DNA of 64,000 bases from the NCBI GenBank assembly GCA_963742735.1, contig CAVUMN010000003.1, forward strand, positions 1-64,000. Direction: 5' to 3'. The stretch comes from an uncultured Actinomycetes bacterium. Lineage in GTDB: Bacteria > Actinomycetota > UBA4738 > JBBDTT01. The notes beneath the pieces were generated by a model that made no database searches, had not been told where the DNA came from, and was given only the letters and a program-made list of their open reading frames with translations. The translations under genes and the position numbers were made by a program. This document shows positions 11,073-62,096 of this stretch, one piece after another (position 1 is the first letter of the stretch; the number at the start of each line of letters is the position of its first letter).

Positions 11073-11870
11073 GTGAGTCCGAGCAACGCCCGACGACGAC
11101 AGCTCCAGAAGCTCGCGCAGCGCCGTGCCGAGGAGCGCAAGCGCGCCCGCCGCAGGAAGGCCCTGACGATCACCGTTGCCTTCCTGGTCGCGGCGGGAGG
11201 CGGCACCGCCGCTTTCCTGGCGTTCACCGGGAACGACGCGAAGACGCCCCAGGCCGCGCCCAGCGCCAACGTCAGCCCGATCGCGAACCCTCCCGCGCAG
11301 CCCGCGCCGAAGAAGGTGGCGTGTGGCGCGAAGGCCCCGGCCGGCGCCGGCGCGGAGAAGACCCTCTACGCCACGACTCCGCCGTTCGAGCTCGACACGT
11401 CGAAGGAGCACACCGCCGTGATCAAGACGTCCTGCGGCACGATCGAGGTCGAGCTGCTCGCCACCGACAGCCCGATCACGGTGAACAACTTCGTGTTCCT
11501 GGCGACGCAGAAGTTCTACGACGGCACCTACCTCCACCGGGTGATCAAGGGGTTCATGAACCAGGGCGGCGACCCGACCGGCAGCGGCGCGGGAGGGCCC
11601 GGCTACCAGTTCGAGGACGAAACCACCAACGGCCTGGTGTTCGACAAGGTCGGCCTGCTGGCCATGGCGAACCGGGGGCCGGGCACCAACGAGAGCCAGT
11701 TCTTCATCACGGTCAGCAAGCCCACCCACCTGAACGGCAAGCACACGATCTTCGGCCGCGTCACCAAGGGCTACGACGTGGTGCAGCGCATCAACAACCA
11801 GAAGACCGGCGAGGGCGACCGCCCCACGTTCGCCATCTACATCGAGTCCATCCGCATCGTCGTCGCGTGA
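11073..11870 (+). CDS. Membrane-anchored cyclophilin-type PPIase
   Basis: Basic N-terminus plus TM; HRVIKGFMNQGGDPTG, LAMANRGPGTNESQFFIT, HTIFGRV. Confidence 0.92.
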   Translation: MSPSNARRRQLQKLAQRRAEERKRARRRKALTITVAFLVAAGGGTAAFLAFTGNDAKTPQAAPSANVSPIANPPAQPAPKKVACGAKAPAGAGAEKTLYATTPPFELDTSKEHTAVIKTSCGTIEVELLATDSPITVNNFVFLATQKFYDGTYLHRVIKGFMNQGGDPTGSGAGGPGYQFEDETTNGLVFDKVGLLAMANRGPGTNESQFFITVSKPTHLNGKHTIFGRVTKGYDVVQRINNQKTGEGDRPTFAIYIESIRIVVA

Positions 11871-11899
11871 CGGCGGAGGCCGGGGGAAGGAGACCGACC

Positions 11900-12412
<513 letters not shown>

Positions 12413-26598: not shown

Positions 26599-27918
26599 AT
26601 GACGCCAGTCCGCCCAATCCGGGCGATCGTCCTTACCCTCGCCGCGCTCGTGCTCGCCGCGGCTCCCGCCTGGTCTGGCCCGCTCGCCGAGCCCATGGCC
26701 GAGCCGCACATGGCGGAGCCCGCGTACACCGAACACGCGCCCGTCCGGATCGAGGACGACGCCGAGTTCGACCGGGAGCACGGCGTCCGCTCGGGCAACG
26801 GCACCGCCCGGCGTCCGTACGTGATCTCCGGCTGGCACGTCGCCTCGATGTTCATCTCCGATACCACCAAGCACCTGGTCATCCGCGACAACCTCGTCGA
26901 CGGGCAGCTCATCCTGGACTGGAACGGTGCCCACGTGCACGTCCACGGCAACACGGTGGGCGACCTCCGCGTGAACCGCAACGTCAAGCGCACCGGCCGG
27001 GCGACCAGCGGCGTCATCGCGCACAACACGTTCGGCCTGGTCGGCCAGCTCCGTCACTTCGACGGAGCCTTTCAGCACAACGTGGTGGGGAGCCCTGCCG
27101 GCAACGCCATGGGGCACTACCAGACGCAGGCTGTTCAGTTCGACGGGTTCAACGGCTCGCGGTTCGTGGACAACACCATCTACGGCTACGTCGAGGCCCG
27201 CCTGCACGGGCACCACCACGGCTCCGGGTTCGGCGCGCCCAGCCACGAGCACATCGAGCACATGGGCTACGCCGACCACACCAAGCGTTACCACGAGGTG
27301 TGGATCGCCCGGAACACCATCTACGCGAACCACGCCTACGCCCTTCGCTTCTACGACACCGGCCACGCCGGCAACGACCGCACGAACAACTCCGAGACCG
27401 ACACCGCTCTGAACCGTCCGCACATCCACTCCACCCGCGTCCACCTGATGCAGAACCGGCTCATCGGCTCCGGGCTTGCCGTGCACGTCTTCAACGCCAA
27501 CGACGACCACCACACCGGGACCACCCGCGGCCTGGTCGAGATCCGCGGGAACCGCATCTCGCTCGAGGACCCGCCGTTCGACACGAGCACCGCGCGAGAC
27601 GGGATCCAGATCCGCACGGTGCGCGACGGCGACCTCCGGGTCGTCGGCAACGTCATCGAGGCCCCGCCCGCCGGGAAGACCAAGCCGTTCACCCTGCTCG
27701 CATCCCTCGGCCGCGCCGCGGGCATCCGCATCGAGGGCGTGAGCGAGGGCCGGGTGTGGTTGTACGACAACCGCGTGGCCAACCGGCACTTCGGGGTCTT
27801 CGCCACGCGGCTGGAGAAGAACGTCCGCTGGTGGATCCGCGGGCTGGTCACCGAGGGGGTGGCCGAGGAGATCCACTACGACGCCAGCGTGCGCAACGAG
27901 CCCATCCGCCAGGGCTGA
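26599..27918 (+). CDS. Secreted His-rich probable beta-helix protein, paralog A
   Basis: Signal peptide; GVRSGNGTARRPYVISGW; repeated I-x-x-N-T/R-I strands; LHGHHHGSGFG; GGAGAAG SD. Confidence 0.75.
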   Translation: MTPVRPIRAIVLTLAALVLAAAPAWSGPLAEPMAEPHMAEPAYTEHAPVRIEDDAEFDREHGVRSGNGTARRPYVISGWHVASMFISDTTKHLVIRDNLVDGQLILDWNGAHVHVHGNTVGDLRVNRNVKRTGRATSGVIAHNTFGLVGQLRHFDGAFQHNVVGSPAGNAMGHYQTQAVQFDGFNGSRFVDNTIYGYVEARLHGHHHGSGFGAPSHEHIEHMGYADHTKRYHEVWIARNTIYANHAYALRFYDTGHAGNDRTNNSETDTALNRPHIHSTRVHLMQNRLIGSGLAVHVFNANDDHHTGTTRGLVEIRGNRISLEDPPFDTSTARDGIQIRTVRDGDLRVVGNVIEAPPAGKTKPFTLLASLGRAAGIRIEGVSEGRVWLYDNRVANRHFGVFATRLEKNVRWWIRGLVTEGVAEEIHYDASVRNEPIRQG

Positions 27919-28044
27919 ATCTCCCGGCGAATCGGTACGAGCCGGACGATCGAGACGCACCCTCGCGTTTCACGCTGAAGGGGACGGGCACACTCCGTCG
28001 AAGTCTCCTGCTGAAGTCCCGTCCGCCCGAGGGGGTGTTGTCCG

Positions 28045-29379
28045 ATGTTCCGTCGCTTCCGCCTCGCGTTTGTCGCTGCCGTCACGCTCCTCGCGCCGCT
28101 CCCGGCCGGTCAGGCCCTCGCCGCGGAACCGCCCACGCTCGAGGCCCGTGACGACATCCGGATCACGCGCGACACCGAGTTCGACCGCGCCCACGGCGTG
28201 CGCTCGGGCAACGGATCCGCCGCCCATCCCTATGTGATCTCGGGCTGGTCGATGAGCAACCTGGCGATCAACGACACGCTGTCGCACTTCGTGATCCGCG
28301 ACAACGAGATCCTCGGGACGATGGTCCTGGACTGGAACGGCCCGGGACAGGTCGTGGTCCACAACAAGGTCGGGGACCTCCGGGTCAACCAGAACGTCGC
28401 CCGCTCCGGCCAGGCCACCTCGGGCCGGATCGCCCACAACACGTTCGGGGTGGTCGGACAGCTCCGGCACTGGGACGGGGTGTTCGAGCACAACGTCGTC
28501 GGCGCCGCCGTCGACGACATGGCCAAGGCGCCGACCGGCCGGGCCGTGAACTTCGACGGGTTCAACGGGGCCCGGTTCCGCCACAACACCATCTACGGGT
28601 ACATGGACTCCACCCTGCACGGACATCACCACGGCTCGGGGTTCGGCCGCGCCAGCCACGACCACTCCGGCGAGATGGCGGCGGCCGAGGCCGAGCACGC
28701 CGGCCACCAGGGCGAGATGGCCCACGAGATGGTCGACCACACCAAGCGCTACCACGAGGTCTTCATCGCCCACAACACGATCTGGGCGAACGCCCCCTAC
28801 GCGCTCGGCTACAACGACATCAACCACGCCGCCAACGACCGGACGAACGCCTCGGAGACCGACCCGGCGCTCGTGGAGCCGCACGTCCACTACACGCGGG
28901 TCCATCTGGTCGGCAACCGCCTGATCGGGGCCGGGCTGGCGGTGGACATCTTCAACGCGACCGACGACCTGCACACGGCGACGCGGCGCGGCCTGGTCGA
29001 ACTTCGCGGGAACCGGATCACGCTGCAGCGCACCGGCTGGAACGGCCTGTGGAGCGGCCCGGACGGCATCCGCATCCAGCAGGTCGTGAACGGCCAGGTC
29101 CGGGTGATCGGCAACTCGATCGACTTCGCGACGACGGAAGGCCTGCCCTCGATGATCGTCTTCCGGGACCAGGACCACGGCGCCGGCATCCGCCTGGGGA
29201 CCGTCGACCGCTCGGACGTCTACCTGTTCGGGAACACCGTGGCCAACCGGCCGTACGGGATCGTCGCCGCGCAGTTCACGAAGACCACGCACTGGTGGAT
29301 CAAGGACTTCCGGACCACCGAGGTCGCCCAGCGGGTGGTCTACGACGCCAGCGTGGTCAACCCGCCGAAGCGCGGCTGA
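28045..29379 (+). CDS. Secreted His/Met-rich probable beta-helix protein, paralog B
   Basis: Signal peptide; colinear similarity to paralog A (GDLRVN, HNTFGxVGQLRH, FDGFNG, DHTKRYHEV, NDRTN). Confidence 0.75.
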   Translation: MFRRFRLAFVAAVTLLAPLPAGQALAAEPPTLEARDDIRITRDTEFDRAHGVRSGNGSAAHPYVISGWSMSNLAINDTLSHFVIRDNEILGTMVLDWNGPGQVVVHNKVGDLRVNQNVARSGQATSGRIAHNTFGVVGQLRHWDGVFEHNVVGAAVDDMAKAPTGRAVNFDGFNGARFRHNTIYGYMDSTLHGHHHGSGFGRASHDHSGEMAAAEAEHAGHQGEMAHEMVDHTKRYHEVFIAHNTIWANAPYALGYNDINHAANDRTNASETDPALVEPHVHYTRVHLVGNRLIGAGLAVDIFNATDDLHTATRRGLVELRGNRITLQRTGWNGLWSGPDGIRIQQVVNGQVRVIGNSIDFATTEGLPSMIVFRDQDHGAGIRLGTVDRSDVYLFGNTVANRPYGIVAAQFTKTTHWWIKDFRTTEVAQRVVYDASVVNPPKRG

Positions 29380-45750: not shown

Positions 45751-46205
45751 AGCGCCAGCGCCAGCAGGCGCTCCTGGACCTGGTTCGCCGGGAGCCGCTC
45801 GGCAGCCAGCAGGAGATCCGCGACCGGCTGGCCGCAGCCGGCCACGCCGCGACCCAGTCCACCATCTCTCGAGACCTCGAGGAGCTCGGGCTGGTCCGCG
45901 TCCGCGACGGCGAGGGCCACCTTCGCTACGCCGATCCGAACGACGTCCCGGCGCCTCGGTCCGACCGCCACCTGCGGGCGGTGCTGTCGGAGTTCGTGAG
46001 CGGCGTGGAGTCCTCCGGGAACCTGGCCGTCGTGTGGACGCCGCCGGGCGCCGCGAACGCGGTCGCCGAGGTCCTCGACCACTCGACCCTGCCCGGCGTC
46101 CTGGCCACGGTGGCCGGCGACAACACGATCCTGGTCGTCGTCCGGGAGCAGGCCAGCGCGCGAACGGTGGCGGCGCGCCTCCGCGAGATGGCGGGGTTGT
46201 CGTGA
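45747..46205 (+). CDS. argR: Arginine repressor
   Basis: SQQEI, TQSTISRDLEELG, TPPGAA, TVAGDNT. Confidence 0.96.
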   Translation: MKRQRQQALLDLVRREPLGSQQEIRDRLAAAGHAATQSTISRDLEELGLVRVRDGEGHLRYADPNDVPAPRSDRHLRAVLSEFVSGVESSGNLAVVWTPPGAANAVAEVLDHSTLPGVLATVAGDNTILVVVREQASARTVAARLREMAGLS

Positions 46206-48943
46206 GTCCGAAGGTCGCGCTCGCGTACTCGGGCGGCCTGGACACCAGCGTGTCCGCGCGGTGGCTGGCCGAGGAGCGCGGGTACGAGGTCCTCGCGGTG
46301 CTGGTCGACGTCGGCCAGCCGATCGACCACGCCGCGGTCCGGGCGCGTGCGGCGGCCGCCGGCGCGGAGCTGCTCGTCGCCGAGGCTCGCGAGGAATACG
46401 TCACGCGGTTCTGCTGGCCGGCGCTGCAGGCCAACGCGTTGTACGAGGGCCGGTACCCGCTGGTGTCCTCGCTGGCCCGCCCGCTGATCGCCGAGAAGGT
46501 CGTCGCGGCGGCCCGCGAGGCCGGCGCGCAGGCGGTGGCGCACGGCTGCACCGGCAAGGGCAACGACCAGGTCCGCTTCGAGACCTCGTTCGCCGCCCTC
46601 GCCCCGGACCTGGAGGTGATCGCCCCCGTCCGCGACGTGGTCATGTCGCGGGACGAGGCCCGCGAGCGCGCCGCGGCGTGGGGGATCCCGCTGTCGGCCG
46701 AGGCCAAGATCTACTCGGTCGACGAGAACGTGTGGGGGCGGACCATCGAGTGCGGCCTGCTCGAGGACCCGTGGGCCGAGCCCCCGGCCGACGCGTTCGC
46801 GTGGACCGCCGACCCGGTCTCGGCGCCGTCCGCGCCCCAGGACGTGGTCGTCACCTTCGACGGCGGCGTCGCCGTCGCCCTGGACGGGCTCCGGCTCGAC
46901 CCGGTGCACCTGGTCCGCCAGATCGGCGAGACGGCCGGGCGGCACGGGTTCGGGCGCGTCGACATGGTCGAGAACCGGCTGGTGGGCATCAAGTCGCGCG
47001 AGCTGTACGAGGTCCCCGCGGCGCTGGCCCTCATCGCCGCCCACCAGGACCTGGAGGCGCTCACGCTCGAGCGCGAGGTCGCCCACGAGAAGGCCGGGCT
47101 CGAGCGCCGGTGGGCCGAGCTGGCCTACTACGGCCAGTGGCACGGCCCCCTGCACGCCTCGCTGCGGGCGTTCATGGAGTCGACCCAGGGCTCCGTGACC
47201 GGCGACGTGAAGCTGCGGTTCCACAAGGGCTCGTGCCGGGTCGTCGGCCGCCGTTCGGATCGCGCGCTGTACGACTACGGGCTGGCGACCTACGAGGCCG
47301 GCGCGGACCGCTTCGACCACAAGCATGCCGAGGGGTTCGTGCGCCTCTGGTCCCTTCCTCTGAGGACGTGGGCCGCCGTGAACCGCGTCCCCCTTCCCGA
47401 GTCACCACCGCCAGCTACTGACGGCAACGGGAAGGTCGCCATGCCCGATTCGCCTCGGGGGGTCCGCCCGCCGTCTGGAACGGACTCCGGCACATCCCAG
47501 GGCGGGCTACCCCCCCGAACCCCCCTCTGGGCCGGGCGGTTTGCGGCCGGCGGTCCATCCGAGGGCACGCTCGCCTTTTCCCGTTCGATCGGGTTCGACA
47601 TGCGGCTTGCGCCGTACGACGTGAAGGCGACGACGGCCCACGCGGAGGCGCTGCGGGAGGCGGGCGTCTTGAGCGACGACGAGACCGTCGCGATCACCGG
47701 CGCGCTGAAAGCCGTGGGCGCCGAGATCGCCGAGGGCAGCTTCGTCCTCGCCGACCACGACGAGGACGTGCACATGGCGATCGAGCGTGCGCTGATCGAG
47801 CGGCTCGGCGAGACGGGCGCGAAGATCCATGCGGCCCGCAGCCGCAACGACCTGGTGGCCACCGACTTCCGGCTGTGGACGATCGACGCGGCCCGCGCCC
47901 TCGCGTCGGCGGCCGCCGGGCTGGCGGAGGCCCTCGCCGAGCGCGGGGAGGAGCACCCGGACGCGATCCTCCCCGGATACACCCACCTCCAGCGGGCCCA
48001 GCCCGTCCTGCTCGCGCACCACCTGCTGGCCCACGCGTTCCCGCTCGTCCGGGACGCCGAGCGGCTGCTCCGGGCCGCGGAGACCGCGGCGGTCAGTCCG
48101 CTGGGCGCCGGGGCGCTCGCGGGATCGACCATCGAGCTGGCGACCGGCGCGACCGCGCGCCGTCTGGGCATGCCGGGGGCGTTCGACAACTCGATCGACG
48201 CGGTCTCGGACCGCGACTTCGCCCTGGAGTTCCTGGGGGCCGGGACCATCCTGGCCGTGCACCTGTCGCGGCTGGCCGAGGACCTGGTGCTGTGGGCGAC
48301 CGAGGAGTTCGGGTTCGCCCGGCCCGCGGACGCCGACGCGACGGGGTCGAGCATGATGCCCCAGAAGCGGAACCCCGACGTGGCCGAGCTCGTGCGGGGC
48401 AAGGCCGGCCGCGTCCTCGGGGCCCTCGTGTCCCTGGCCACGGCGATGAAGGGCCTCCCGCTGGCCTACGACCGCGACCTCCAGGAGGACAAGGAGCCGG
48501 CGTTCGACGCGTACGACACCCTCTCCGGCGGGCTGGAGGCCCTCGCGGCGATGGTCCGAGGGCTCACGTTCGACACCGAGCGCATGGCCGCGGCCGCGTC
48601 CGGCGGCTTCCTGCTGGCCACCGACCTCGCCGAGCATCTGGTGTCGAAGGGCATGCCCTTCCGCGACGCGCACCACCTGACCGGCACGATCGTGGCGGAG
48701 CTCGAGGCGACGGACCGGGCGTTCGACGACGTCGGCCCGGACGAGTGGGCCGGCTGGTCGCCGCTGCTCGGGCCCGAGGTGGCCGAGCTCCTGACGCCGG
48801 AGCGGGCCGTGCGCCGGCGGACCACGCCGGGTGGCACCTCGCCCGAGTCGGTGGCCGGGCAGCTCGTGGCGCTGCGGGCGCGGCTCGGCGACGTGCGCGA
48901 GCGGGCCGGCGAAGCGGGCACCTACACTGTGCCCCTTCGATGA
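46202..48943 (+). CDS. argG-argH: Argininosuccinate synthase and argininosuccinate lyase in one reading frame (argH part has its own ATG at 47441)
   Basis: [29 protein letters not shown]; then [34 protein letters not shown]. Confidence 0.9.
47457..47525 (+). repeat. 69-bp structured dispersed repeat, copy 1 (in argH N-terminus)
   Basis: 58/69 gap-free identity to the reverse complement of 60490-60558 (manual alignment). Confidence 0.88.
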
Positions 48944-50607
48944 CCGAGGACCTCCAGCACCGCAGCCGCGACGTCGTCACCCGGCCCCCGTCCCGGGCGA
49001 TGCTCCGCGCGGTCGGGTTCACCGACGAGGACTTCGGGCGCCCCCAGATCGGCGTCGCCTCGTCGTGGAACGAGGTCACCCCCTGCAACTACCACCTGGA
49101 CCGCCTGGCCGATGTCGCGAAGGAGGGCGCGCGGGAGGCCGGCGGCGTCCCGATCGAGTTCACGACGATCGCCGTCAGCGACGGCATCTCGATGGGGACC
49201 GAGGGGATGCGCGCGTCCTTGGTGTCCCGCGAGGTCATCGCGGACTCCGTCGAGCTCGTGATGCACGCCGAGCGCCTGGACGCCATGGTCACCATCGCCG
49301 GCTGCGACAAGAGCCTTCCGGGCATGGTCATGGCCGCCGCCCGCCTGGACCTGCCCACGGTCTTCGTCTACGGAGGCTCGATCCTTCCCGGCCATGTCCG
49401 GGGCCGGGACATCAACATCCAGGACGTCTTCGAGGCGGTCGGAGCGAACGCCGCCGGGCAGATGAGCGACGAGGAGCTCGACGAGATCGAGCGCAATGCG
49501 TGTCCCGGCCCGGGGTCGTGCGCGGGGATGTTCACCGCGAACACGATGGCGGCCGCGGTCGAAGCCCTGGGGATGTCGCTGCCCGGCAGCGCGTCCCCGC
49601 CGGCCGTCGACCCGCGCCGGGACGACTTCGCGCGCGCCAGCGGTGTGGCGGCGGTCCGCGCGCTGGAGGCGGGCGTCCGTCCGCGCCAGGTGATCACCCG
49701 TGACGCGCTGGAGAACGCGATCGCCGTGGTCATGGCGCTGGGGGGATCGACCAACGCGGTCCTGCACCTGCTGGCGATCGCCGTCGAGGCGGAGGCCGAG
49801 CTCGACATCGACGACTTCGACCGCATCGGCCGCCGCGTCCCGCACTTCGGCGACCTCCGCCCCTCCGGCCGTTTCGTAATGGCCGACCTGGACCGCGTCG
49901 GCGGCGTTCCGGTGGTCATGAAGGTCCTCCTGGACGCCGGGCTCCTGCACGGCGACGCCCTCACGGTGACCGGCAAGACGGTGGCGGAGAACCTGGCCGA
50001 GCTCGACCCCCCGGCACCCGACGGGGACGTCGTGCGCCCGTTCGACCAGCCGATCCACGCCGACGGCGGCCTGGCCATCTTCAAGGGCTCGCTGGCGCCG
50101 GAGGGCGCGGTCGGCAAGATCTCCGGCATGGACGGGACGACCTTCCGCGGCCGCGCCCGGGTGTTCGATCTCGAGGAGGATGCCTTCGACGCGGTGACCC
50201 ACGGCCGGATCGTGGCCGGCGACGTGATCGTCATCCGCCACGAGGGGCCGAAGGGCGGGCCGGGGATGCGCGAGATGCTCGCGGTGACGGCGGCGGTCGT
50301 CGGAGCGGGCCTGGGCCGCGACGTCGCGCTGGTCACCGACGGCCGATTCTCGGGGGCCACCCGCGGCTTCGCGATCGGCCACGTCGCGCCCGAGGCGGCG
50401 GTCGGCGGGCCGATCGCGCTGGTGGAGGAGGGCGATTCGATCGTCCTCGACGTCGACGGCCGCCGCCTCGACCTGGAAGTCGCCGACGAGGAGCTCGAAC
50501 GTCGCCGGGCCGGATGGAAGGCCCCCCAGCCGCGCTACACCCACGGCGCGCTGGCGAAGTACGCGCGGCTGGTCAGCAGCGCCTCCCGCGGCGCCGTCTG
50601 CGGCTAG
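48940..50607 (+). CDS. ilvD: Dihydroxy-acid dehydratase
   Basis: [52 protein letters not shown]. Confidence 0.97.
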
Positions 50608-50654
50608 GCGAAACCGGGCAGGAGCCCGCCCCCCGCGCAGAGAATTCCACACAA

Positions 50655-52091
50655 ATGCGCCCCCAGCCCGCCCCGTCGCGTCCCGGCGACGCCCGCCGCC
50701 CCTTCTCCGGAGGCGGCCTCGTCGCGCGCTTCGCGCTGGTGTCCCTGGTCGTGTTCCTGCTCGTCGGCGGGTCCCTGCACCTGTTGATCTCCGGGCAGCT
50801 CAAGGACCGAGCCGAGGCCTCCGCCACCCAGCATGCCGTGGTGCTCACGCGGGCAGTCCTCGAGGACATCCTGGAGCCCTCCGACGTGGATGCGCCGCTG
50901 CGCGGGGAGCGGTACGAGGAGGTGCTTCGCGGGGTCCTCACGCGGGTCGTGATCGGCGACGCCCTGCGCCTCAAGGTGTGGCGGCCCGACGGCACCGTGG
51001 TGTTCTCCGACGAGATTCGGCTCGTCGGCCGGCGATTCCCCGAGGAGGCCCCCGAGCTCGCCACGGTCCTCCGGGACGGGCCTGTCGGCGAGGTCAGCGA
51101 CCTGCTGGCAGCGGAAAACGTCTACGAGCGCGGCCTGGCGGAGCGGATGCTGGCCACCTACGTGCCCCTGCGCCTGGGGACGGCGTCCGAGCCGGTCGCG
51201 GTCGCGGAGCTGTATCAGGACTACGGACCCACGGCCGCGGAGACCTCCGCCTCCCTGGCCCAGATGGACGTGATCGTGGGCAGCGGGTTCCTGCTCCTCT
51301 ACCTGGTGCTGCTGCCGATCGCCCGCAACGCTGGAACGACGCTCGTCCACCAGACGCAGGGCCTGGCCCAGCAGCGCGACGAGCTGGAGACGCTCGTCAG
51401 GGAGCGAGGCGAGCTGCTTCGCCGGCTGGTCCGCGCCCAGGAGGACGAACGGACCCGGATCGCCGGCGACATCCACGACGACTCGATCCAGGCGGTGACC
51501 GAGGTGGCCTGGCGGCTCGAGGGCGTGCGCCGCCGCATCCACGACCCGGAGGGGCTGGCGCGCCTGGAGGGGGTGGACGACGCCATCCGGGGCACGCTCG
51601 GCCGTATGCGGAACCTGCTGTTCGAGCTGCGCCCGCCCTCGCTCGAGGAGTCGGGGCTGAGCGCCGCCTTCGTCACCTACCTGACGCGCGCCGCCGCCCA
51701 CGAGGGGTTCGAGTACTCGATCGACAGCCGGCTGGCGAGCGAGCCGCCGCTGGAGACCCGGACGATCGCGTACCGGATCGGTCAGGAGGCCCTGGCGAAC
51801 GTGCGAAAGCACGCCAAGGCGACGCGGGTCGAGGTGATCCTCGACGAGGTCGACGGGGGCCTGCGCATGCTCGTGCGGGACGACGGCGTGGGGATGCCGG
51901 CGGAGGTCCCGGACCGGCCCGACCACTTCGGCCTGATGAGCATGCGCGAACGGGCCACCATGGTCGGTGGGTGGTGTCGCGTGGGCGGCGCCCCCGGCCA
52001 GGGGACGACCTGCGAGGTCTGGCTGCCGCTCGAGGCCGGCCCCCGCCCGGAGGAGACGCCCGCCGACCCACGGCCGGCATCGGAGATCTAG
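50655..52091 (+). CDS. Membrane sensor histidine kinase (HisKA_3/NarX-like); no adjacent response regulator
   Basis: 2 TM; ERTRIAGDIHDDSIQ, ELRPPSL, QEALANVRKHA, DDGVG, GLMSMRERA. Confidence 0.92.
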   Translation: MRPQPAPSRPGDARRPFSGGGLVARFALVSLVVFLLVGGSLHLLISGQLKDRAEASATQHAVVLTRAVLEDILEPSDVDAPLRGERYEEVLRGVLTRVVIGDALRLKVWRPDGTVVFSDEIRLVGRRFPEEAPELATVLRDGPVGEVSDLLAAENVYERGLAERMLATYVPLRLGTASEPVAVAELYQDYGPTAAETSASLAQMDVIVGSGFLLLYLVLLPIARNAGTTLVHQTQGLAQQRDELETLVRERGELLRRLVRAQEDERTRIAGDIHDDSIQAVTEVAWRLEGVRRRIHDPEGLARLEGVDDAIRGTLGRMRNLLFELRPPSLEESGLSAAFVTYLTRAAAHEGFEYSIDSRLASEPPLETRTIAYRIGQEALANVRKHAKATRVEVILDEVDGGLRMLVRDDGVGMPAEVPDRPDHFGLMSMRERATMVGGWCRVGGAPGQGTTCEVWLPLEAGPRPEETPADPRPASEI

Positions 52092-52600
52092 CCCAGCGCC
52101 CGTTCGAACGCGGCGTACGCGTCCTCCCCGAACAGCGTGAACCGAACGGTCTCGACCCCCGTCGCGGCGTCGCGCACCGCCGACACCGCCACCGGCGCGG
52201 CGAGGTCCAGCGGGTAGCCGTACACGCCGGTCGAGATCGCGGGGAACGCCACCGTCCGCGCGCCCACCTCGTCGGCGATGCGCAGCGCGTTCGTGTGGCA
52301 CGCGGCGAGCAAGCCCGAGCGGTCCTCGGACGTCGCGAACACCGGGCCGACCGTGTGGATCACCCAGCGGGCGGGCAGGCGCCCGGCGGTGGTCGCCACG
52401 GCGTCGCCGGTCGGAAGCCCGCCCGGATAGCGCTCCTCGCGAAGCCGCCGGCACTCGGCCAGGATCTCCGGCCCGCCGCGGCGGTGGATCGCCCCGTCGA
52501 CGCCGCCCCCGCCGAGCAGAGACCGGTTGGCGGCGTTCACGATCGCGTCGACGTCCTGTTCGGTGAGGTCTCCCCGGACGAGCTCGATCTCCGGGGCCAC
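52088..52600 (-). CDS. Macrodomain O-acetyl-ADP-ribose deacetylase (YmdB-like)
   Basis: GDLT, IVNAAN, GGGGVDGAIH, HTVGP, AFPAISTGVYGYP. Confidence 0.95.
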   Translation of the reverse strand: MAPEIELVRGDLTEQDVDAIVNAANRSLLGGGGVDGAIHRRGGPEILAECRRLREERYPGGLPTGDAVATTAGRLPARWVIHTVGPVFATSEDRSGLLAACHTNALRIADEVGARTVAFPAISTGVYGYPLDLAAPVAVSAVRDAATGVETVRFTLFGEDAYAAFERALG

Positions 52601-52607
52601 CGCCGGG

Positions 52608-54110
52608 CTAGTCGCCGAAGTCCGGCATCTCGCCGACGTAGGTCGCCGTGGGGCGGATGAGGCGGTTGTCGGCGATCTGCTCCAGGATGTGCGCGGCCCA
52701 GCCCACCACCCGGCTGCACCCGAACGTCACCGTTGCAAGCTCGCGGGGGATGCCGGCCATCTCGAAGACCACCGCCGAGTAGAACTCGACGTTGGTGTAG
52801 AGCGGCCGCCCCGGCTTCAGCTCCCGCAGGACCTCGTGGGCCATCTGCTCGACGTGCAGGGCCAGCTCCACCCGGCCGCCCCCGAACTCCTCGGCGGTCC
52901 GTTTGAGGGCCAGCGCCCGCGGGTCGTCGGTGCGGTAGACACGATGCCCGAACCCCATCAGCCGGTTGCCCGCCTTGACCCGCTCGGCCAGCCAGTCCCT
53001 GGCCTTCTCCTTCGAACCGATCGCGTCGAGCATGTCCAGAACGAGCGACGGCGCGCCGCCGTGAAGCGGCCCCGACAGCGCCCCGACCCCGCCCACGACC
53101 GCGGCGCCAACGTCGGCGCCGGTGGACGTGATGACCCGTGCGGTGAACGTGGACGCGTTCATCCCGTGGTCGGCGGTGAGGGTGAAGTAGCGGTTCATCG
53201 CGATGACCTGCGCCTCGGTCGGCTCGGTGCCGGTCACGGCGCGCAGGTATCCGGCCACATGGCCGCCCTCGCCGAGGTCGACCGGGCTGGTCCCCCCGGC
53301 CCGGATCGCGCCGACGATCGCCGGGAAGGCCGCGGCCAGGCGCAGGACGTCCTCGCGCGGCTTGGCCGGGTCGTCCTCCTCCAGCCAGGGGGCGTAGCCC
53401 CACTCGGCGGCCAGCGCGGAGGCGGCCGAGCGCAGTCCTGACATCGGCGAGCCCACCCCGGCCGCCGCGGCGATCCCCGCCTCCTCGGCGGACAGGCGCC
53501 GGCGGGCGGCGAGCTCGGCCGTGAACGCCTGGAGCTCGTTCGGGTCCGGCAGGCGCTCCTCGAGGAGCAGGAACCACACCGCCTCGAACGAGTGGTTCAT
53601 CGCGAGCTCGACGGCGTCGTGGCCGACGTAGACCAGCCGGCCCTTCTCGCCGTCGATGAAGCTCTTGCGCGTCTCGCCGACGACGACGTTCTCCAGGCCC
53701 TTGGCGCTGCTCGGGCGGGACGGGTCGACTTCGCTGATCCGCAGGCCGGTGACCAGATCGCGCAGCGACACCACCCCGGCGAGCTTTCCGTCGTCGATCA
53801 CCGGAAGGTGGCGGAACCCCTTCTGGGAGAGCAGGTCGAGGGCTTCGGCCGCCGAGGTGTCGGCGTCGACGGTCACCGGCTCGGAGGTCATCCATGCCGA
53901 GACCAGCGAGGTCTCCGGCTGGGCGGCGCCCGCCGTCGAGCTGACCATGTCGCGCTCGGTGATGATCCCCACCAGGCGCCCGTCCTCCGTCACCAGCGCG
54001 GAGCCGACCCCGCGCTCGCGCATGGCTTGCGCGGCCACGCCGATCGGGTCGCTCGGGCGGACGGTGACGGCGTCGGAGGTGAGGAGGTCGCGGACGGTGA
54101 CGTCGGCCAT
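52608..54110 (-). CDS. CBS-pair domain fused to citrate synthase (CitA/PrpC type)
   Basis: CBS: LVGIITERD, FRHLPV, GVVSLRDL; CS: KGLENVVV, DHGMNASTF, GPLHGGA, MGFGHRVY, DPRA, NVEFY. Confidence 0.92.
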   Translation of the reverse strand: MADVTVRDLLTSDAVTVRPSDPIGVAAQAMRERGVGSALVTEDGRLVGIITERDMVSSTAGAAQPETSLVSAWMTSEPVTVDADTSAAEALDLLSQKGFRHLPVIDDGKLAGVVSLRDLVTGLRISEVDPSRPSSAKGLENVVVGETRKSFIDGEKGRLVYVGHDAVELAMNHSFEAVWFLLLEERLPDPNELQAFTAELAARRRLSAEEAGIAAAAGVGSPMSGLRSAASALAAEWGYAPWLEEDDPAKPREDVLRLAAAFPAIVGAIRAGGTSPVDLGEGGHVAGYLRAVTGTEPTEAQVIAMNRYFTLTADHGMNASTFTARVITSTGADVGAAVVGGVGALSGPLHGGAPSLVLDMLDAIGSKEKARDWLAERVKAGNRLMGFGHRVYRTDDPRALALKRTAEEFGGGRVELALHVEQMAHEVLRELKPGRPLYTNVEFYSAVVFEMAGIPRELATVTFGCSRVVGWAAHILEQIADNRLIRPTATYVGEMPDFGD

Positions 54111-54231
54111 CGCGCGCATCGTACCCGCATGCCCGCGGCACCGGCGAGGGAGGTTGGAAGGCGGTCGCGGGGCGTTTGGCGGGTTCGCCCGAAGGGGTTA
54201 CCCGCCGCCACCGTGTGGGAACGCTACAGGC

Positions 54232-54477
54232 ATGAATCGATGGTGGACCTGCCCTCGCTGCGGAGAGGTCGTCCCCGTCTCCTATCAGCTCGAGGAGTCC
54301 TTCGACGAGACGGGCATGGCGACGTTCGATCCCTCCGAGCACATCGCGCCCATGCGCGAGGACAAGCTCACGGCATCGTGGATGGGCGTGGTGCGCTGCC
54401 CCAACCACGAATGCGAGGCCGCGTGGGTGTTCACGCTCTACCCGGCCGAGAAGTCGCTGTTCGCCGAGTCCGCCTAG
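54232..54477 (+). CDS. Small putative zinc-ribbon protein
   Basis: CPRC ... CPNHEC; codon usage like neighbours; GTTT-N17-GGGTTA upstream. Confidence 0.65.
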   Translation: MNRWWTCPRCGEVVPVSYQLEESFDETGMATFDPSEHIAPMREDKLTASWMGVVRCPNHECEAAWVFTLYPAEKSLFAESA

Positions 54478-54523
54478 TCCGCCCAGGTAGGAACCCGCCC
54501 GCCCCCGCGGCGAATATCCCTGC

Positions 54524-55960
54524 GTGCGAACCGCCCGCCCGATCGCGCTCGTCCTGATCGTCCTGTCGTTCGCGTGGGCATCCGCCGCGTCGCCGGCCGG
54601 CGCCCGGCCGAAGCCGAAGGCCGTGACGCCGCCGATGGCGGTGGTCGCGCTGATCGACTCGGGGATCAACCCGTACGCGGCGGCCTTCCGGGACCGTTCG
54701 CCGCTGGCGTACCGGCATCCCTCCACGTACATCCCCGGATACCCGAAGGGCGCGCGCGAGCTGCGCCTGACCCTCGACGTCCCCTACGAGCGAGCGCTGG
54801 AGCGGGACCGGCGCACGTGGACGCGCGTCCGCCCGGAGACCCTGTACTGGATCCCGGGCACCCGGATCGTCGGCGCGATCTCCATGGCGAGCGGCGGGAC
54901 GAGCTGTCCGGTCGTGCCGGTGCCGCCCGCCAACGCGGTCAACCAGACCTCGTGCGAGGACTTCCCGATCCTCGACGGCCACGGCCACGGGACCATGACG
55001 GCCTCACGCGCCGCGGGCCGGCCGAACTCGCTGGCGCCGTACGCGCGCATCGTCGAGGTCGAGGGCCTCGGCGCCGCCTCCGTTCGGTGGGCCGCCGACC
55101 AGGGCTGGATCGACGTCCAGTCGAACTCGTGGATCGACCTGATCCCGCCGCCGGTGAACGGCCTGGTAGGGGACACCTCGGCGGCCTTCGCGTACGCGTC
55201 GACCCGGACGCTGACTCTGGCCGCCTCGGGGAACGGAAGCGCGTACATCCTGGGCGTCGCCCCGACCCCCACCTACGTGCTGTCCACGGCGCCGCCGGGG
55301 GTGATCCTGGTCGGCGGCCACGACAACGGACGGATGACCCTGTGGTCGGGCTCGCCCCCGCACGTGGTCGCCGACTCCTACGCGGGCTACGCGGCGCTGC
55401 GGACCTCCTCCGGCCCGATGGTCCCCGACTCGATCGCGTGCTGCTCCAGCGCGGCGTCCCCGTACGCGGCCGGCGCCGCCGCGGCGATCGTGGACCGTGC
55501 GCGGAAGATCCTCGGCGACCACCGCACCGGGATCCACGACGGCGTGGTGGCCCGGGGGCCGGCCGGCCGCGTCAAGGCCGGACCGCTCGCCGACGGCATG
55601 TTCACGCTCGACGAGCTTCGCTCGCTGTTCCTGCACACCGCCGAGGCCCGCCCCGCGGAAGGTCGCGACGACGGCCTGGTCCACTGGACCGGCGAGCCCC
55701 GCGCGCCCGAGCTGACCCCGTTCGGCCCGGGCGCGAACCCCTTCTGCCAGGGCTGCTGGACGACGCCGGTCTCCTGGGAAGACATCCCGGCCGAGGGACC
55801 GACCTACCCCCTGCTCGGCTACGGGGCGATCAACGAGCGCTCGCTGGTCCTGGCCCTGCGGGTGCTGAGCGGCACCGCCAACGAGCCCGAGCGCCCCCAG
55901 GAGGACCAGGCCTTCGACCTGGACCAACAGCTGCGCGCGCTCATCTTCGGGTCGGGATGA
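54524..55960 (+). CDS. Secreted S8 (subtilisin-like) peptidase, divergent
   Basis: Signal peptide; IDSGI, GHGTMTAS, AASGN, CSSAASP. Confidence 0.72.
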   Translation: MRTARPIALVLIVLSFAWASAASPAGARPKPKAVTPPMAVVALIDSGINPYAAAFRDRSPLAYRHPSTYIPGYPKGARELRLTLDVPYERALERDRRTWTRVRPETLYWIPGTRIVGAISMASGGTSCPVVPVPPANAVNQTSCEDFPILDGHGHGTMTASRAAGRPNSLAPYARIVEVEGLGAASVRWAADQGWIDVQSNSWIDLIPPPVNGLVGDTSAAFAYASTRTLTLAASGNGSAYILGVAPTPTYVLSTAPPGVILVGGHDNGRMTLWSGSPPHVVADSYAGYAALRTSSGPMVPDSIACCSSAASPYAAGAAAAIVDRARKILGDHRTGIHDGVVARGPAGRVKAGPLADGMFTLDELRSLFLHTAEARPAEGRDDGLVHWTGEPRAPELTPFGPGANPFCQGCWTTPVSWEDIPAEGPTYPLLGYGAINERSLVLALRVLSGTANEPERPQEDQAFDLDQQLRALIFGSG

Positions 55961-56022
55961 GGATGTCGGTGCGGCGCGGTAGCCTTGACACACCTCTCCC
56001 GAAGCGGGGATAAGGAGGAGAG

Positions 56023-56265
56023 GTGGAAGCGCTCAACACCATCATCAACGCGTTCGCGATCGGGATCGTCGGCCTCCTGCTGGGGCTGCAGACCCGTTCG
56101 ATTCGCGGCGAGGTCACCGAGCTCGGGCGCGAGATGCATGATGAGTTTCGGTCGGTGCGGGGGGAGCTGGCGTCCTTACGGTCAGATCTCACAAATGTGG
56201 CCCTCACCGTCGGCGCCGCTGCCTCGCCGCGCTCAGGAGCTCCTGGAGCCTCAGGCACGCGGTAG
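56023..56265 (+). CDS. Small membrane-anchored coiled-coil protein
   Basis: TTGACA at 55985 and AGGAGAG SD; hydrophobic N-terminus plus heptad-like tail. Confidence 0.5.
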   Translation: MEALNTIINAFAIGIVGLLLGLQTRSIRGEVTELGREMHDEFRSVRGELASLRSDLTNVALTVGAAASPRSGAPGASGTR

Positions 56266-56332
56266 GTCGCGCTCGTTCTTGGGCCAAGCTGAAAATGATC
56301 CACGCGGGCCTGCTGGACTAGGCTCCAACGGC

Positions 56333-56500
56333 GTGAGGGTGGCTCTAGGGATACTTGTTGCATTGGTCGGGCTCGCCTTGACGGCCTACTCGATCCCCTT
56401 CGTGACGGGGGTTGCTTTCGCTGTCTTCCTGCTGGGGATCGCAACGCTGGTCGCTGGAGTCCGGCTAGCGTTGCGCGGACGGGGCTCCACCTCAAACTGA
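56333..56500 (+). CDS. Possible small 2-TM protein
   Basis: Very hydrophobic 55-aa ORF; atypical codon usage, no clear SD. Confidence 0.35.
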   Translation: MRVALGILVALVGLALTAYSIPFVTGVAFAVFLLGIATLVAGVRLALRGRGSTSN

Positions 56501-56524
56501 CCCACTACCTCGGCGCCCAGGCAC

Positions 56525-56553
56525 TTGACGGAGCGTCAGATGGGGCGCATCAT
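56525..56553 (+). promoter_or_regulatory. ilv-leu operon promoter
   Basis: TTGACG-17 nt-CATCAT just upstream of the leader peptide. Confidence 0.65.
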
Positions 56554-56563
56554 GGGCGGTCCA

Positions 56564-56620
56564 ATGTTCGGGCCGACGGAGTTTGCGCGCATCGACCTGA
56601 GCCTCGTACTTATTAGGTAG
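56564..56620 (+). CDS. Branched-chain amino acid attenuator leader peptide [18 protein letters not shown]
   Basis: Ile/Leu/Val control codons ATC..CTG..CTC GTA CTT ATT directly before the antiterminator/terminator. Confidence 0.85.
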
Positions 56621-56622
56621 GC

Positions 56623-56689
56623 GCGGGGCCGGGCAAGCATGCCCGCCGCGCGCCAGACGACCTCCGGCCCCGCCGGGGGTCTTTTGTTT
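56623..56689 (+). terminator. Attenuator: antiterminator and terminator
   Basis: Terminator GACCTCCGGC/GCCGGGGGTC+TTTTGTTT (56659-56689); mutually exclusive pairing GCGGGGCCGG (56623) with CCGGCCCCGC (56664). Confidence 0.9.
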
Positions 56690-56767
56690 CCCCGGCTTCA
56701 GCGCCGAAGCCAAGCGTCCGAGAACAGAGCAAAGGGTGCGAAGCGCCCCCGAGCAGGAGGGAACGAG

Positions 56768-57070
56768 ATGCGGTTCGAGTTTCACGACAAGGACAGCCGG
56801 GTCGGCACGGCCCAGTGGGAGGGCCCGGGCCAGGTCCGGCTGACGGTCGAGGATCCCGCGGAGCGGGACTACCTGACCACGTACTTCGCCGGCGAGATGC
56901 ACTACATGGCGACCCCGTTCGACGAGGACGAGGACGCGCTGCAGGTTCGCCGGCGCGACTGGACGCCGTGGGAGTTCGAGCGGGCGTGCCTGGCCCTGAC
57001 CTCCAAGCGCGGCTACCGCGTGCACATGACCCCGTCCGAGGCCGTCGAGGCCCGCCCCGAGGCCAGCTGA
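56768..57070 (+). CDS. Hypothetical 100-aa protein, first gene of the ilv-leu operon
   Basis: AGGAGGG SD, typical GC3 codon usage, 29 nt before ilvB. Confidence 0.8.
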
Positions 57071-57099
57071 ACCCCAACCCCCGAGAGGAGACGACCGAC

Positions 57100-58869
57100 A
57101 TGACCCGATCCACCCCGAAGCCCGGGCGCCTCAGCGGCGCGCAGTCGCTGATGAAGAGCCTCGAGCTCGAGGGCGTAGAGGTCATCTTCGGGATCCCCGG
57201 CGGGGCCATCCTGCCGGCCTACGACCCGATGCTCGACTCCTCGATCCGTCACCTGCTGATGCGCCACGAGCAGGGAGCCGGCCACGCCGCGGAGGGCTAC
57301 GCCCACGCCACCGGGAAGGCCGGGGTGTGCATGGCCACCAGCGGTCCCGGCGGCACGAACCTGGTCACCGCGCTGGCCGACGCGCTCATGGACTCGGTCC
57401 CGGTGGTGGCGATCACCGGGCAGGTCCCGACCGCGGTCGTCGGCAACGACGCGTTCCAGGAGGCCGACATCACCGGCATCACGATCCCGGTCACCAAGCA
57501 CAACTGGCTGGTCACCGACGGCGCGGATATCCCTCACGTGATCCGAGAGGCGTTCCACATCGCCACGACCGGACGGCCCGGCCCCGTCCTGGTCGACATC
57601 CCCAAGGACGTCCTGATCAACGAGACCGACTTCGAGTGGCCGGAGCAGCTCGACCTTCCGGGCTACAACCCGACCACCAAGGGCAATCTCAAGCAGGTCC
57701 GCGAGGCCGTGAAGCTCATCATGGCGGCCGAGCGCCCGGTCCTCTACGTCGGCGGCGGCGTGATCAAGGGCGAGGCCTCGAAGGACCTGTTCAAGCTGGC
57801 CGAGACCGGCCGGATCCCCGTGGTCACCACCCTCATGGCGCGCGGGGCGTTCCCCGACACCCACGAGCTGGGCCTGGGCATGCCCGGGATGCACGGCAAC
57901 TACACGGCGGTCACCGCGATGCAGAAGGCCGATCTGCTGATCGCCCTCGGCACCCGGTTCGACGACCGCGTGACCGGCAGCCTCGCCTCGTTCGCGGCGG
58001 GCGCCAAGATCATCCACGTCGACGTCGATCCGGCGGAGATCGGCAAGAACCGCCGCGCCGACGTGCCGATCGTGGGCGACGCACGCGACGTGACCGCCGC
58101 GCTGGCGCGCGAGCTCGCGAAGGCGGTCTCGGAGAACGGCAACCCCGACCGGTCGAAGTGGCTCGCCCAGATCAAGGACTGGCAGGATCGGTTCCCGCTG
58201 CGCTACGACCAGACCGACGACGGCCCGATCAAGCCGCAGTACGTGGTCGAGCGCGTCTACGAGGCCACCGGCGGCGAGGCCACGATCGTGGCCGGCGTCG
58301 GGCAGCACCAGATGTGGACCTCACAGCACTACAAGTTCACCCGGCCCCGTCAGTTCATCAACTCCGGGGGCCTGGGGACGATGGGCTTCGCGGTCCCCGC
58401 GGCCCTCGGCGCCAAGATGGGGCGGCCGAAGGACGTCGTGTTCGCGATCGACGGCGACGGCTGCTTCCAGATGACCGCGCAGGAGCTCGCCACGTGCGCC
58501 TTCGAGGACATCCCGATCGTGGTCGGCATCCTGAACAACGGCTACCTCGGCATGGTCCGCCAGTGGCAGGAGCTCTTCTACAACCGTCGCGAGTCGCAGG
58601 TGGAGTTCGGGTGGGACGTGCCCGACTACGTGAAGCTCGCCGAGGCGTACGGCGGCGTCGGACTGCGCGCCGAGACGCCCGACGAGGTCGACTCGATCCT
58701 GGACAAGGCCCTGTCGGTGAAGGACAAGACCGTCGTCATCGACTTCCGCGTCGACCGCACCGAGATGGTCTTCCCGATGGTCCCGGCCGGAGGGTCGAAC
58801 GACGACATCATCCTCGGCCCCGAACAGGCGGAGCCGGCGGACGAGCCGGCCGACGCCCCGATCGCGTAG
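57100..58869 (+). CDS. ilvB: Acetolactate synthase large subunit
   Basis: [50 protein letters not shown]. Confidence 0.97.
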
Positions 58870-58878
58870 GGGGTTCGG

Positions 58879-59406
58879 ATGTCACTGCACACCGTCAGCG
58901 TCCTGGTCCAGGACAAGCCGGGAGTCCTGGCCCGTGTCGCGGGGCTGTTCGCCCGCCGCGGCTTCAACATCCACTCGCTCGCGGTGGGCAACACCGAGGA
59001 CCCGGGCACGAGCCGGATGACGATCGTCGTCGAGATCAAGACCAAGCCTCTCGAGCAGGTGACGAAGCAGCTCAACAAGCTCGTGAACGTCCTGAAGGTG
59101 GCCGAGCTGGAGCACGGGAGCGCGGTCGAGCGCGAGCTGGCGTTGATCAAGGTCCGCGCCACCAACGGCGACCGTCCCCGCGTGATCGAGGTCGCCCAGA
59201 TCTTTCGCGCGCGGATCCTCGACGTCGCCCACGACGCCCTGACCATCGAGATCACCGGGAACTCCGACAAGGTCGAGGCGTTCCACGATCTGCTTCGGCC
59301 GTTCGGGGTGATCGAGATGGTCCGGACGGGCCGCGTCGCGCTCGCTCGCGGCGAGGAGGGTCTGAAGGACCGCCGGCTTCGCGCCGTCAAGACCGGCACC
59401 GACTGA
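58879..59406 (+). CDS. ilvN: Acetolactate synthase small subunit
   Basis: [37 protein letters not shown]. Confidence 0.97.
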
Positions 59407-59440
59407 TCGACATCACCGACACGACCACGAGGAGACCGAC

Positions 59441-60467
<1,027 letters not shown>

Positions 60468-60475
<8 letters not shown>

Positions 60476-62096
60476 CGGTGGCGTAGGCGGGGGGGTACGG
60501 GGGGGTAGCGCGCCCCAAGGTGCCCCGGAGTCCGTTCCGGAGAGCGGGCGGACCCCCCGTGAGCAGGATGTAGTCCGGTTCTTCGACACCACCCTGCGCG
60601 ACGGGGAGCAGGCGCCCGGCATCGCACTCTCCGGCGCCGAGAAGATCGAGATCGCGGAGCACCTGGCCCGACTCGGCGTCGACATCATCGAGGCCGGTTT
60701 CCCGGCGTCGAGCCAGGGGGACTTCGACGCGGTCGCGAAGATCGCCGACCAGGTGAAGGGCCCGACCATCGCCGCGCTGTGCCGGACGAACCACGACGAC
60801 GTCGATCGTGGCTGGGACGCGATCAAGGGAGCGGCGAAGGGCCGCCTGCACCTGTTCGTGTCCACGAGCGACGTGCACATGACCTCGATGCTGAAGATGG
60901 ACGCCGACCAGGTCCTGACCCTCACGCGGGAGACCGTCCGTCGCGCCGCCGGCTACACCGACGACGTGGAGTTCTCGGCCCAGGACGCCACCCGAACCGA
61001 CCCCGAGTTCATGCTCGAGGTGTTCCGCGTCGCCGTCGAGGAGGGCGCCACGACGATCAACGTGCCGGACACGGTCGGCTACGCCCTGCCCCACGAGTTC
61101 GGCGAGCTGGTACGCATGGTCCGCGAGGCCCTGCCCGAGCACGTGATCATCTCCACGCACTGTCACAACGACCTCGGGCTCGCCGTGGCGAACTCCATGG
61201 CCGGCGTCATGAACGGGGCGCGACAGGTGGAGGTCGCGGTCAACGGGATCGGCGAGCGCGCCGGCAACTGCTCGCTCGAGGAGGTCGCGATGATCGTGCA
61301 GACGCGCGGCCAGGCCCTCGGCCTCTCCCACAACCTGAACCTGAAGGAGATCGCCCGGACGTCGCGGCTGGTCAGCCTGTTGACCGGCTACGTCGTGCAG
61401 CCCAACAAGGCCGTGGTCGGCGCGAACGCGTTCGCCCACGAGTCGGGCATCCACCAGCACGGGGTGCTCATGAACCGCGCGACCTACGAGATCATGGACC
61501 CCGCCGAGATCGGGCTGGAGGGCTCCCGGATCGTATTGGGCAAGCATTCCGGGCGCCACGCGTTCTCCGACGCGCTGGCCAAGCTCGGCCTGGAGCTGGA
61601 CCGCGACGCGCTCGATCGCGCGTTCGCCCGGTTCAAGGACCTGGCCGACCGCAAGATCCAGCTGACCGACGCTGACCTCGAGGCGATCGTGGCCGAGGAG
61701 CTCGGCACGTCGGACCGCGACGGCTTCGTGATCGAGTCGCTCGCCGTCACCGGCGGGACGCACCTGTCGCCCACGGCCACGGTGCGTCTTCTCCGAGGAG
61801 GAGAGACGTTCGAGGACTCCGCCCTCGGAGACGGGATGATCGACGCCGCGTGCGGCGCCATCGCCCGCGCCACGGGCGTCGACGCCCGCCTGGTGAACTT
61901 CAATGTGTCGAGCGTGACCGGGGGATCGGACGCGTTGGGCGACGTCGTCATCCAGCTCGACGTCGACGGCAGGCTCGTGACCGGCCGCGGCGTGAGCAGC
62001 GATGTCGTGGAGGCCAGCGCCAGGGCCTACCTCTCCGCCATCAACCGAGCCCTCTCCGTCGAGGCGAACGACGCGGGCGAACGGGGCAGCCGATGA
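60468..62096 (+). CDS. leuA: 2-isopropylmalate synthase with repeat-derived N-terminal extension
   Basis: [40 protein letters not shown]. Confidence 0.96.
60490..60558 (-). repeat. 69-bp structured dispersed repeat, copy 2 (in leuA N-terminus)
   Basis: Reverse complement matches 47457-47525 at 58/69. Confidence 0.88.

Follow-up and report, generated by a model that had tools for sequence, protein, structure and literature searches.

A dispersed, apparently undescribed hairpin repeat of about 69 nt that resides in core enzyme genes of uncultured actinobacteria

We found that two similar segments of an uncultured Actinomycetes genome belong to a dispersed family of hairpin repeats of about 69 nt (75-78 nt with the 5′ leader), copies of which lie between genes and, in several cases, in frame within genes for unrelated enzymes. 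Both segments come from a 64,000-nt stretch (GenBank assembly GCA_963742735.1, contig CAVUMN010000003.1, positions 1 to 64,000; hereafter the window, to which all coordinates without a contig label refer) of the 3.08-Mb genome that we call G000. Copy A is situated in a fused argG-argH gene and copy B, in the opposite orientation, at the start of leuA (Table 1). The inverted match between them, first reported in the initial annotation, was reproduced: copy A and the reverse complement of copy B are identical at 58 of 69 ungapped positions (59 of 70 with a flanking C; BLAST E 1e-15 when searched against G000) and constitute the longest inverted repeat in the window, with 6 of the 11 mismatches clustered in one 11-column stretch. 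An Rfam 15 scan of the window at the gathering score returned no family for the repeat, a single tRNA being the sole match. The family appears to be undescribed: four of its sequence motifs had no match in the literature searched, which also yielded no description of the family, with the proviso that the consensus figures and supplements of PMC3733652, as well as PMC2267715 and PMC12306157, could hold a relative.

The repeat is widespread within a narrow set of lineages. G000 contains seven copies with unrelated flanks, the same set being recovered by BLAST, by four rounds of nhmmer and by a covariance model (which scores copy A at 76 bits and copy B at 63.7 bits), and in five relatives an exact pattern detects 29, 34, 17, 3 and 4 copies, with none for the reversed-pattern control. 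These further copies support the initial suggestion of a non-autonomous dispersed repeat. With a slightly looser pattern, 14 of 294 genomes of the class are carriers (up to 36 copies per genome), namely G000 and its relative G001, 10 of 27 genomes of family f8 and 2 of 9 of family f6; families f5 (0 of 223) and f7 (0 of 27) have none. A scan of species-representative genomes yielded 54 loci in 10 assemblies, all of them titled actinobacteria. The core measures 64-68 nt by pattern, and at some sites units are joined head to tail in arrays of up to six with a period of 75-78 nt. Searched with the covariance model, 150 other genomes of the phylum include 6 with related shells of 54-87 nt whose inner stems are different; seven loci were read from four of the six (L201, L202, L203, L205, L208, L209 and L212), G294 and G405 being counted only. 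These loci, from other families of the phylum, retain the G-run/C-run shell and the tail, and their inner stems are different but compensated or the middle is much shorter (54 nt); two lie within long frames. As separate observations, G000 has a lone decayed right arm devoid of a left arm (C3:689026, minus strand), and certain genes or junctions are occupied in different genomes (L021/L048/L192; L063/L060/L188; L102/L197; L113/L186; L123/L184; L018). Among those repeatedly occupied are the dehydrogenase E1 alpha/beta junction, rsmB, the gene for DNA polymerase III alpha and the leu and arg operons, a pattern that does not distinguish inheritance from re-insertion.

Comparison with close relatives reveals alleles that lack the repeat. 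Three LeuA proteins with 91-93% identity to that of G000 comprise 517 aa as against 542, the entire difference being N-terminal, and leuA of G001 is 81 nt shorter at this site. The peptide encoded by the element is absent from a 91%-identical ArgG-ArgH and from the ArgG-ArgH of G001, so that the idea of insertion into leuA and argH (more exactly, the ArgG-ArgH linker) is borne out by empty orthologs of both. Likewise, the purA/purD junction, occupied in G000, is empty in all four relatives read, and the G000 sites corresponding to two G001 copies are empty. Of four comparisons between the relatives G027 and G046, two are clearly of an empty with a filled site (net insertion of at least 75 nt), one shows a possible right-end remnant and one is too diverged. 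The leader that precedes the core is pyrimidine-rich, 6-10 nt long and subject to lineage-specific preferences. No general target-site duplication was detected at 37 single-copy sites, where 345 of 1000 shuffles reach the observed sharing between flanks; an 11-nt repeat seen at L022 is possibly what remains of a tandem.

The family is held together by a predicted fold. In an alignment of 81 of the 104 distinct copies (one per array), two stems (columns 10-16/68-74 and 20-26/58-64) are paired in 96.6% of cases and feature 13 double changes, a level that none of 500 shuffles equals and that slid controls (38-61%) do not approach. The conserved structure is modelled as two stems that enclose a hypervariable loop of about 30 nt, followed by an unpaired tail: the loop retains its length and not its sequence (identity 0.38 overall and 0.64 within G000, against 0.91-0.92 for the arms), and the 7-nt tail is unpaired but almost invariant. 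With RNAalifold the base of the outer stem gains one more pair (U-A in 35, C-G in 34, A-U in 2 and G-C in 1). Within G000 this pair is T-A in copy A (T47455 with its predicted partner A47518), A-T in copy B and G-C in a third copy, the one ahead of a TtuA-like gene, two of the seven copies being unpaired there as aligned. The difference between copies A and B at this position is predicted to be compensatory; the U-A/C-G split tracks lineage to a large extent and therefore counts as few events. The covarying stems uphold the earlier view that conservation acts on the nucleic acid. The specific inner hairpin then proposed (CYGGA with TCCGG) did not survive, since only 36.7% of its cells are paired and 491 of 500 shuffles do as well or better. 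A GTAG motif abuts the inner stem (its A is more than 90% conserved), with its first G paired in the outer stem, and the conserved arms contain no start codon. Counts of wobble pairs, 47 against 21, favour the C-tail strand. At one site common to three metagenome contigs, 2-3 of 16 nt differ in the left arm, as do 2-3 of 150 in the coding flank (the right arm having been fixed by the search, the left alone was compared), which weakly suggests that the arms may be constrained during spread and decay once resident.

Copies A and B each fall between an in-frame ATG (47441 and 60468, both opening M-P-D) and the first conserved motif of the enzyme, just as was initially annotated, and yet the N-terminal placement deduced from this holds for leuA and is not supported for argH. 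As ATG 47441 is internal to a single frame (46202-48943), copy A lies in the linker between the two domains and not necessarily at an N-terminus; the ATG itself is a possible secondary start of the ArgH part. The fusion is lineage-wide and not a peculiarity of the G000 assembly, with 69 of the 70 best protein matches (query included) spanning 865-973 aa and carrying both domain sets, and with fused genes also in relatives G001 and G004; a separate argH gene with an N-terminal copy was for this reason rejected as the main interpretation. The linker is 48-94 aa long, highly variable and rich in Pro and Ala (in the 35 of 120 proteins parsed by pattern), and the C-tail strand of copy A, taken as a reading frame, specifies a Pro-rich peptide within it. 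In the leuA frame there is no ATG, GTG or TTG between ATG 60468 and the FDTTLRD motif, and the TGA of ilvC overlaps the leuA ATG by 8 nt, an arrangement shared with the empty-site relative G001.

Across G000, five of the seven copies are read through by a called frame and the other two are intergenic. The read-through sites comprise the linker of ArgG-ArgH, the N-terminus of LeuA and the C-terminal ends of a ThiS-like gene (before the TtuA-like gene), of purA and of a gene preceding a glycosyltransferase. At the fourth of these, the purA frame continues across the repeat into purD (C4:993052-995683, L004; copy at C4:994323). We do not trust the resulting PurA-PurD fusion, as the copy is one base too long and purD has a second frameshift further on, the two genes are separate in all four relatives checked, and no close full-length fusion occurs among the best matches; assembly indels are the likely cause. 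The ThiS-like sulfur carrier (C3:926575-926859, L001; also L134) has residues beyond its Gly-Gly motif, which derive from the repeat in G000 and from other sequence in G004, and one JAMM-motif protein (C4:1525637-1526041) could potentially trim it.

The same kinds of residence recur throughout the family. Gene calls from a simple hexamer model, which makes the classes approximate, divide 72 sites into 20 that a frame runs through, 16 that overlap the end of a gene and 36 that lie between genes. Proteins interrupted internally by 24-26 residues and with an empty ortholog in G000 are an acyl-CoA dehydrogenase, RsmB (which has two units), a DNA polymerase III alpha (in its PHP domain), a DUF6504 protein and two others with no Pfam match, and these unrelated genes bear out the likeness to the in-frame elements of Rickettsia that was drawn at the outset. 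The repeat offers several frames on both strands, and no peptide is conserved. Of 29 protein-matched frames running into the element from upstream, 26 read the G-rich strand (25 of 26 when three G000 self-matches are left out), as does the nearest matched gene at 13 of 14 distinct sites in a manually read metagenome set. Ten of the entering frames end at the TAG of the element; the sole frame that passes this position is that of G000 purA, by a CAG codon. Six frames read through to a stop; in three of them the stop forms a -4 overlap with an ATG or GTG, in a fourth with a possible TTG, and the G000 ThiS-like gene also ends in such an overlap, so in some cases coupling to the neighbouring gene is kept via host frames. 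Intergenic copies between co-directional genes are split 9 to 6, suggesting that the bias exists mainly where the element is translated. Two frames of the G-rich strand specify a Gly-rich peptide and the third meets a TAG within about six codons; the opposite strand specifies Pro-Pro motifs, which slow ribosomes. We infer that the bias arises from selection for a Gly-rich peptide or a quick stop over Pro-Pro motifs. Copy A, in a linker that is already Pro-rich, is among the exceptions to it. Bias with respect to the replication strand was uninformative in G000, given seven copies and a weak skew.

We know of no dedicated transposase for the Rickettsia palindromic elements (RPEs), the first of four known groups with which the repeat can be compared on the basis of parts of the cited papers. 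RPEs are palindromes of 105-150 nt, about half of whose copies are fused in frame to unrelated housekeeping genes (PMC10969869, PMC3733652); our family resembles them as a dispersed palindromic repeat that touches a reading frame at about half of its sites and enters unrelated genes in frame. It differs in being about 70 nt long, GC-rich and actinobacterial, with a hypervariable loop, a peptide that is not conserved, a strong strand bias, a built-in TAG and tandem arrays, and it thus lacks the conserved encoded peptide and the length of about 105-150 bp by which an RPE is recognized. With the GTAG repetitive extragenic palindromes (REPs) and their paired forms (REPINs), it shares a GTAG at the foot of a 7-bp inner stem on the G-rich strand, a bulged stem, tandem clusters that include flanking DNA, and intragenic copies (PMC3733652, PMC8266576), and its TAG often stops the upstream gene, as is described for GTAG REPs (PMC3733652). 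However, its GTAG appears to be embedded in a longer two-stem hairpin and not to be an unpaired end tag, its loop is unstructured and about 30 nt long, and no gene for a REP-associated tyrosine transposase (RAYT) was found. The main text of the PMC3733652 survey nowhere contains the word 'actino'.

The interspersed repetitive units of mycobacteria (MIRUs; PMC3184786, PMC12548453, PMC4128351) are comparable in being actinobacterial, of 40-100 bp (with a 77-bp class) and located at operon junctions, and in featuring coupled frames with -4 overlaps, arrays, and empty and filled sites. Unlike MIRUs, which have a small open reading frame of their own, insert at start codons and are bounded by 4-bp direct repeats, our repeat extends or ends host frames and enters domains with no duplication, a comparison made by description. 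BoxC and the related PIT and TM-ECO elements (PMC4666352) likewise have two G-rich runs 3-4 nt apart and one C-rich run, all on the same strand; here the order is class I and not class II, the G runs are pure, a 45-nt insert replaces the short loop, and many copies are intragenic, whereas TM-ECO is always intergenic in Escherichia coli (PMC4666352). By at least one defining feature in each case, the repeat falls outside RPEs, GTAG REPs, MIRUs and BoxC, and it is best classed as a REP/RPE/MIRU-like non-autonomous repeat, the behavior itself being known from Rickettsia and others.

We posit, with a probability of roughly 60%, that the repeat is a selfish non-autonomous element that is copied as a folded single strand by an enzyme acting in trans and is kept where the host protein still works, as when a copy contributes no more than a flexible peptide or provides a stop codon. 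Such an enzyme would recognize the bulged stem and the unpaired tail and ignore the loop, so that the arms would be constrained during copying while the loop drifts. An enzyme reading a folded single strand would fit the missing target duplication, the asymmetry of the tail, the internal loop and the inclusion of flanking bases in arrays, and in PMC8266576 it is both the tag and the bulge of REPs that TnpA-REP reads. A HUH/RAYT-like nuclease is a tentative first guess as to its identity. In gene-dense genomes most landings would strike genes, and survivors would be expected at gene ends, linkers and loops, with the G-rich strand favored in genes for its Gly-rich peptide in two frames and its TAG in the third; in read-through copies the overlap of the stop with the start of the next gene would often be preserved, and the added peptide is presumably translated.

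Several results weigh against this reading, first among them the search for an enzyme. The flanking HUH/TnpA-REP or insertion sequence (IS) transposase envisaged in the initial annotation was not found in G000 and the relatives scanned, which are incomplete assemblies (61-98% complete), so that its absence is not established. Y1_Tnp (PF01797) is lacking from G000 and occurs above the cut-off in one of five repeat-rich genomes and in none of 25 others, the single hit having no repeat beside it; IS110 (13 of 30 genomes) and DUF559 (5 of 30) do not track the repeat, and their loci are free of repeat arms. Twenty regions with orphan arms harbor decayed copies only and no autonomous partner. The insertion ends are also inexact, as the leader matches the empty allele in the comparison of G000 with G001 and not in two comparisons of G027 with G046. 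Single copies fold only modestly better than shuffles (z from -0.1 to -2.6), and the covariation and strand counts are overstated, kin not being independent. Beyond these genomes, no match to an autonomous partner emerged from viral contigs or plasmids and none was present at 18 metagenome loci; two 28-nt matches in phages (E 0.7) were taken as chance. Locus L182, a lone right arm on a low-quality contig without usable frames, was dropped, and two more loci are cut at a contig end.

As an alternative, along the lines of the role in operon mRNA processing suggested in the initial annotation, the repeat could be a cis-acting RNA structure selected by the host to tune stability, processing or coupled translation at operon junctions. 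The many copies at gene junctions, the single strand read by most of the genes entered and the G-U-compatible changes in the stems would accord with this; but presence varies among close relatives at each site tested, the host genes are unrelated, resident arms decay, Rfam offers no match, and copy A has no terminator-like site. Moreover, the wobble pairs favor the C-tail strand while mRNAs mostly carry the G-tail strand, and we regard this explanation as unlikely. In an equally unlikely proposal of wider scope, mobile hairpins with no transposase of their own would occur across the phylum, sharing the G-run/C-run shell, exchanging inner stems and being copied by a host enzyme (e.g., a reverse transcriptase (RT)-like one). 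Such hairpins would be built to land harmlessly in genes, since their frames are Gly-rich, a stop is built in and the 75-78-nt unit would keep stop-start coupling.

A candidate for such copying through RNA is a short RT-like gene (200-300 aa, with a W-V/M-D-D motif) found in G000 (C3:886173-886787; L268:477-1088, minus strand) and most relatives tested (L258-L261 and L263-L266), which apparently is a single-copy chromosomal gene with two recurring neighborhoods. Its distribution and the strong strand bias relative to transcription speak for it, as does one decayed copy about 90-190 nt upstream of the RT-like open frame in G052. The gene is, however, also present in families without the repeat (all five f5 genomes), none of the other RT loci among 14 scanned carries a copy, and co-directional intergenic copies are little biased, which together leave this route improbable. 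Still more doubtful is spread with no dedicated enzyme, in which a purine-motif intrastrand triplex on the G-rich strand (a third G-run lying on the G/C stem) would stall replication and template switching or gene conversion would generate new copies. A triplex of this kind was proposed to underlie the instability of BoxC/TM-ECO, and the G-rich strand does have the class I order (G-run, 3-4-nt loop, G-run ... C-run) in the definition that we take from part of PMC4666352, which allows the second loop 1-6 nt in place of the approximately 45 nt seen here. The nearly invariant unpaired tail, the recurrence of the shell with different inner stems elsewhere in the phylum and the lack of a detected transposase are in keeping with it, but no triad covariation is available as a test, and it is difficult to see how new insertions would arise at dispersed sites if no enzyme took part. 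Least credible is a classical miniature inverted-repeat transposable element moved by a DDE transposase, because its imperfect 10-bp terminal inverted repeats, though readable at the ends (90.6% paired), pair worse than all 500 shuffles with a variable position that anti-covaries (42 of 81 unpaired), and there is no target-site duplication.

Table 1. Window features that bear on the repeat (positions in nt of the window)
Feature	Position	Strand	Comment
Repeat copy A, core	47457..47525	+	Predicted G-run/C-run outer stem, inner 7-bp stem, variable loop, unpaired C-rich tail
Copy A 5′ leader	47447..47456	+	T47455 and C47456 lengthen the outer stem; remainder weakly conserved, pyrimidine-rich
Repeat copy B, core	60490..60558	-	G-tail strand in frame gives a Gly-rich peptide at the LeuA N-terminus
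Copy B 5′ leader	60559..60568	-	Predicted pair 60560-60497 is A-T; copy A has T-A there
argG-argH fusion	46202..48943	+	One 913-aa frame: argininosuccinate synthase (ArgG) and argininosuccinate lyase (ArgH)
In-frame linker ATG	47441..47443	+	Comparable ATG in relative G001
ilvC	59441..60475	+	Named from sequence, not from a family-library scan
leuA	60468..62096	+	2-isopropylmalate synthase, 542 aa; 25 aa longer than three 91-93% identical homologs

Some further features of G000 were noted alongside the repeat. TANNNT hexamers occur 6-8 nt before GTG starts on both sides of one copy and after another (C1:249394-249505, L005, and C4:225910-225935, L003), a placement that may reflect leaderless actinobacterial promoters, which it resembles. 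A 17-19-bp palindrome with the core TCTGACGG-W-CCGTCAGA is scattered over the genome (e.g., C1:22809, C3:212994, C4:545252) with no instance in the window; it has 8 exact occurrences, 20 with at most one mismatch (9 of these 20 within called genes) and 26 with at most two, reversed and rearranged controls giving none, and it has the look of a protein-binding site distributed chromosome-wide, not of an insertion. In the window, diverged direct repeats of 90-185 nt (26744-29373, at spacings of about 1413-1461 nt, and 11513-12366, at 542 nt) are probably duplicated protein domains or paralogous genes. In addition, contig C2 ends in a long, near-perfect inverted duplication (C2:224098-224431) that is a possible assembly artefact, and a 273-nt unit is repeated about 12 times from C4:1474754 onwards.

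The family described here offers a comparative set for asking how small palindromic repeats with no known transposase (RPEs, CGTC REPs, MIRUs and BoxC) spread, with empty and filled alleles in close relatives and covarying stems that would mark what an enzyme reads, and its sharp strand bias helps to separate insertion from survival. In the actinobacteria that carry them, these repeats rewrite the ends, linkers and loops of core enzymes, among them LeuA, ArgG-ArgH, RsmB, DNA polymerase III alpha, PurA and the ThiS-like sulfur carrier.

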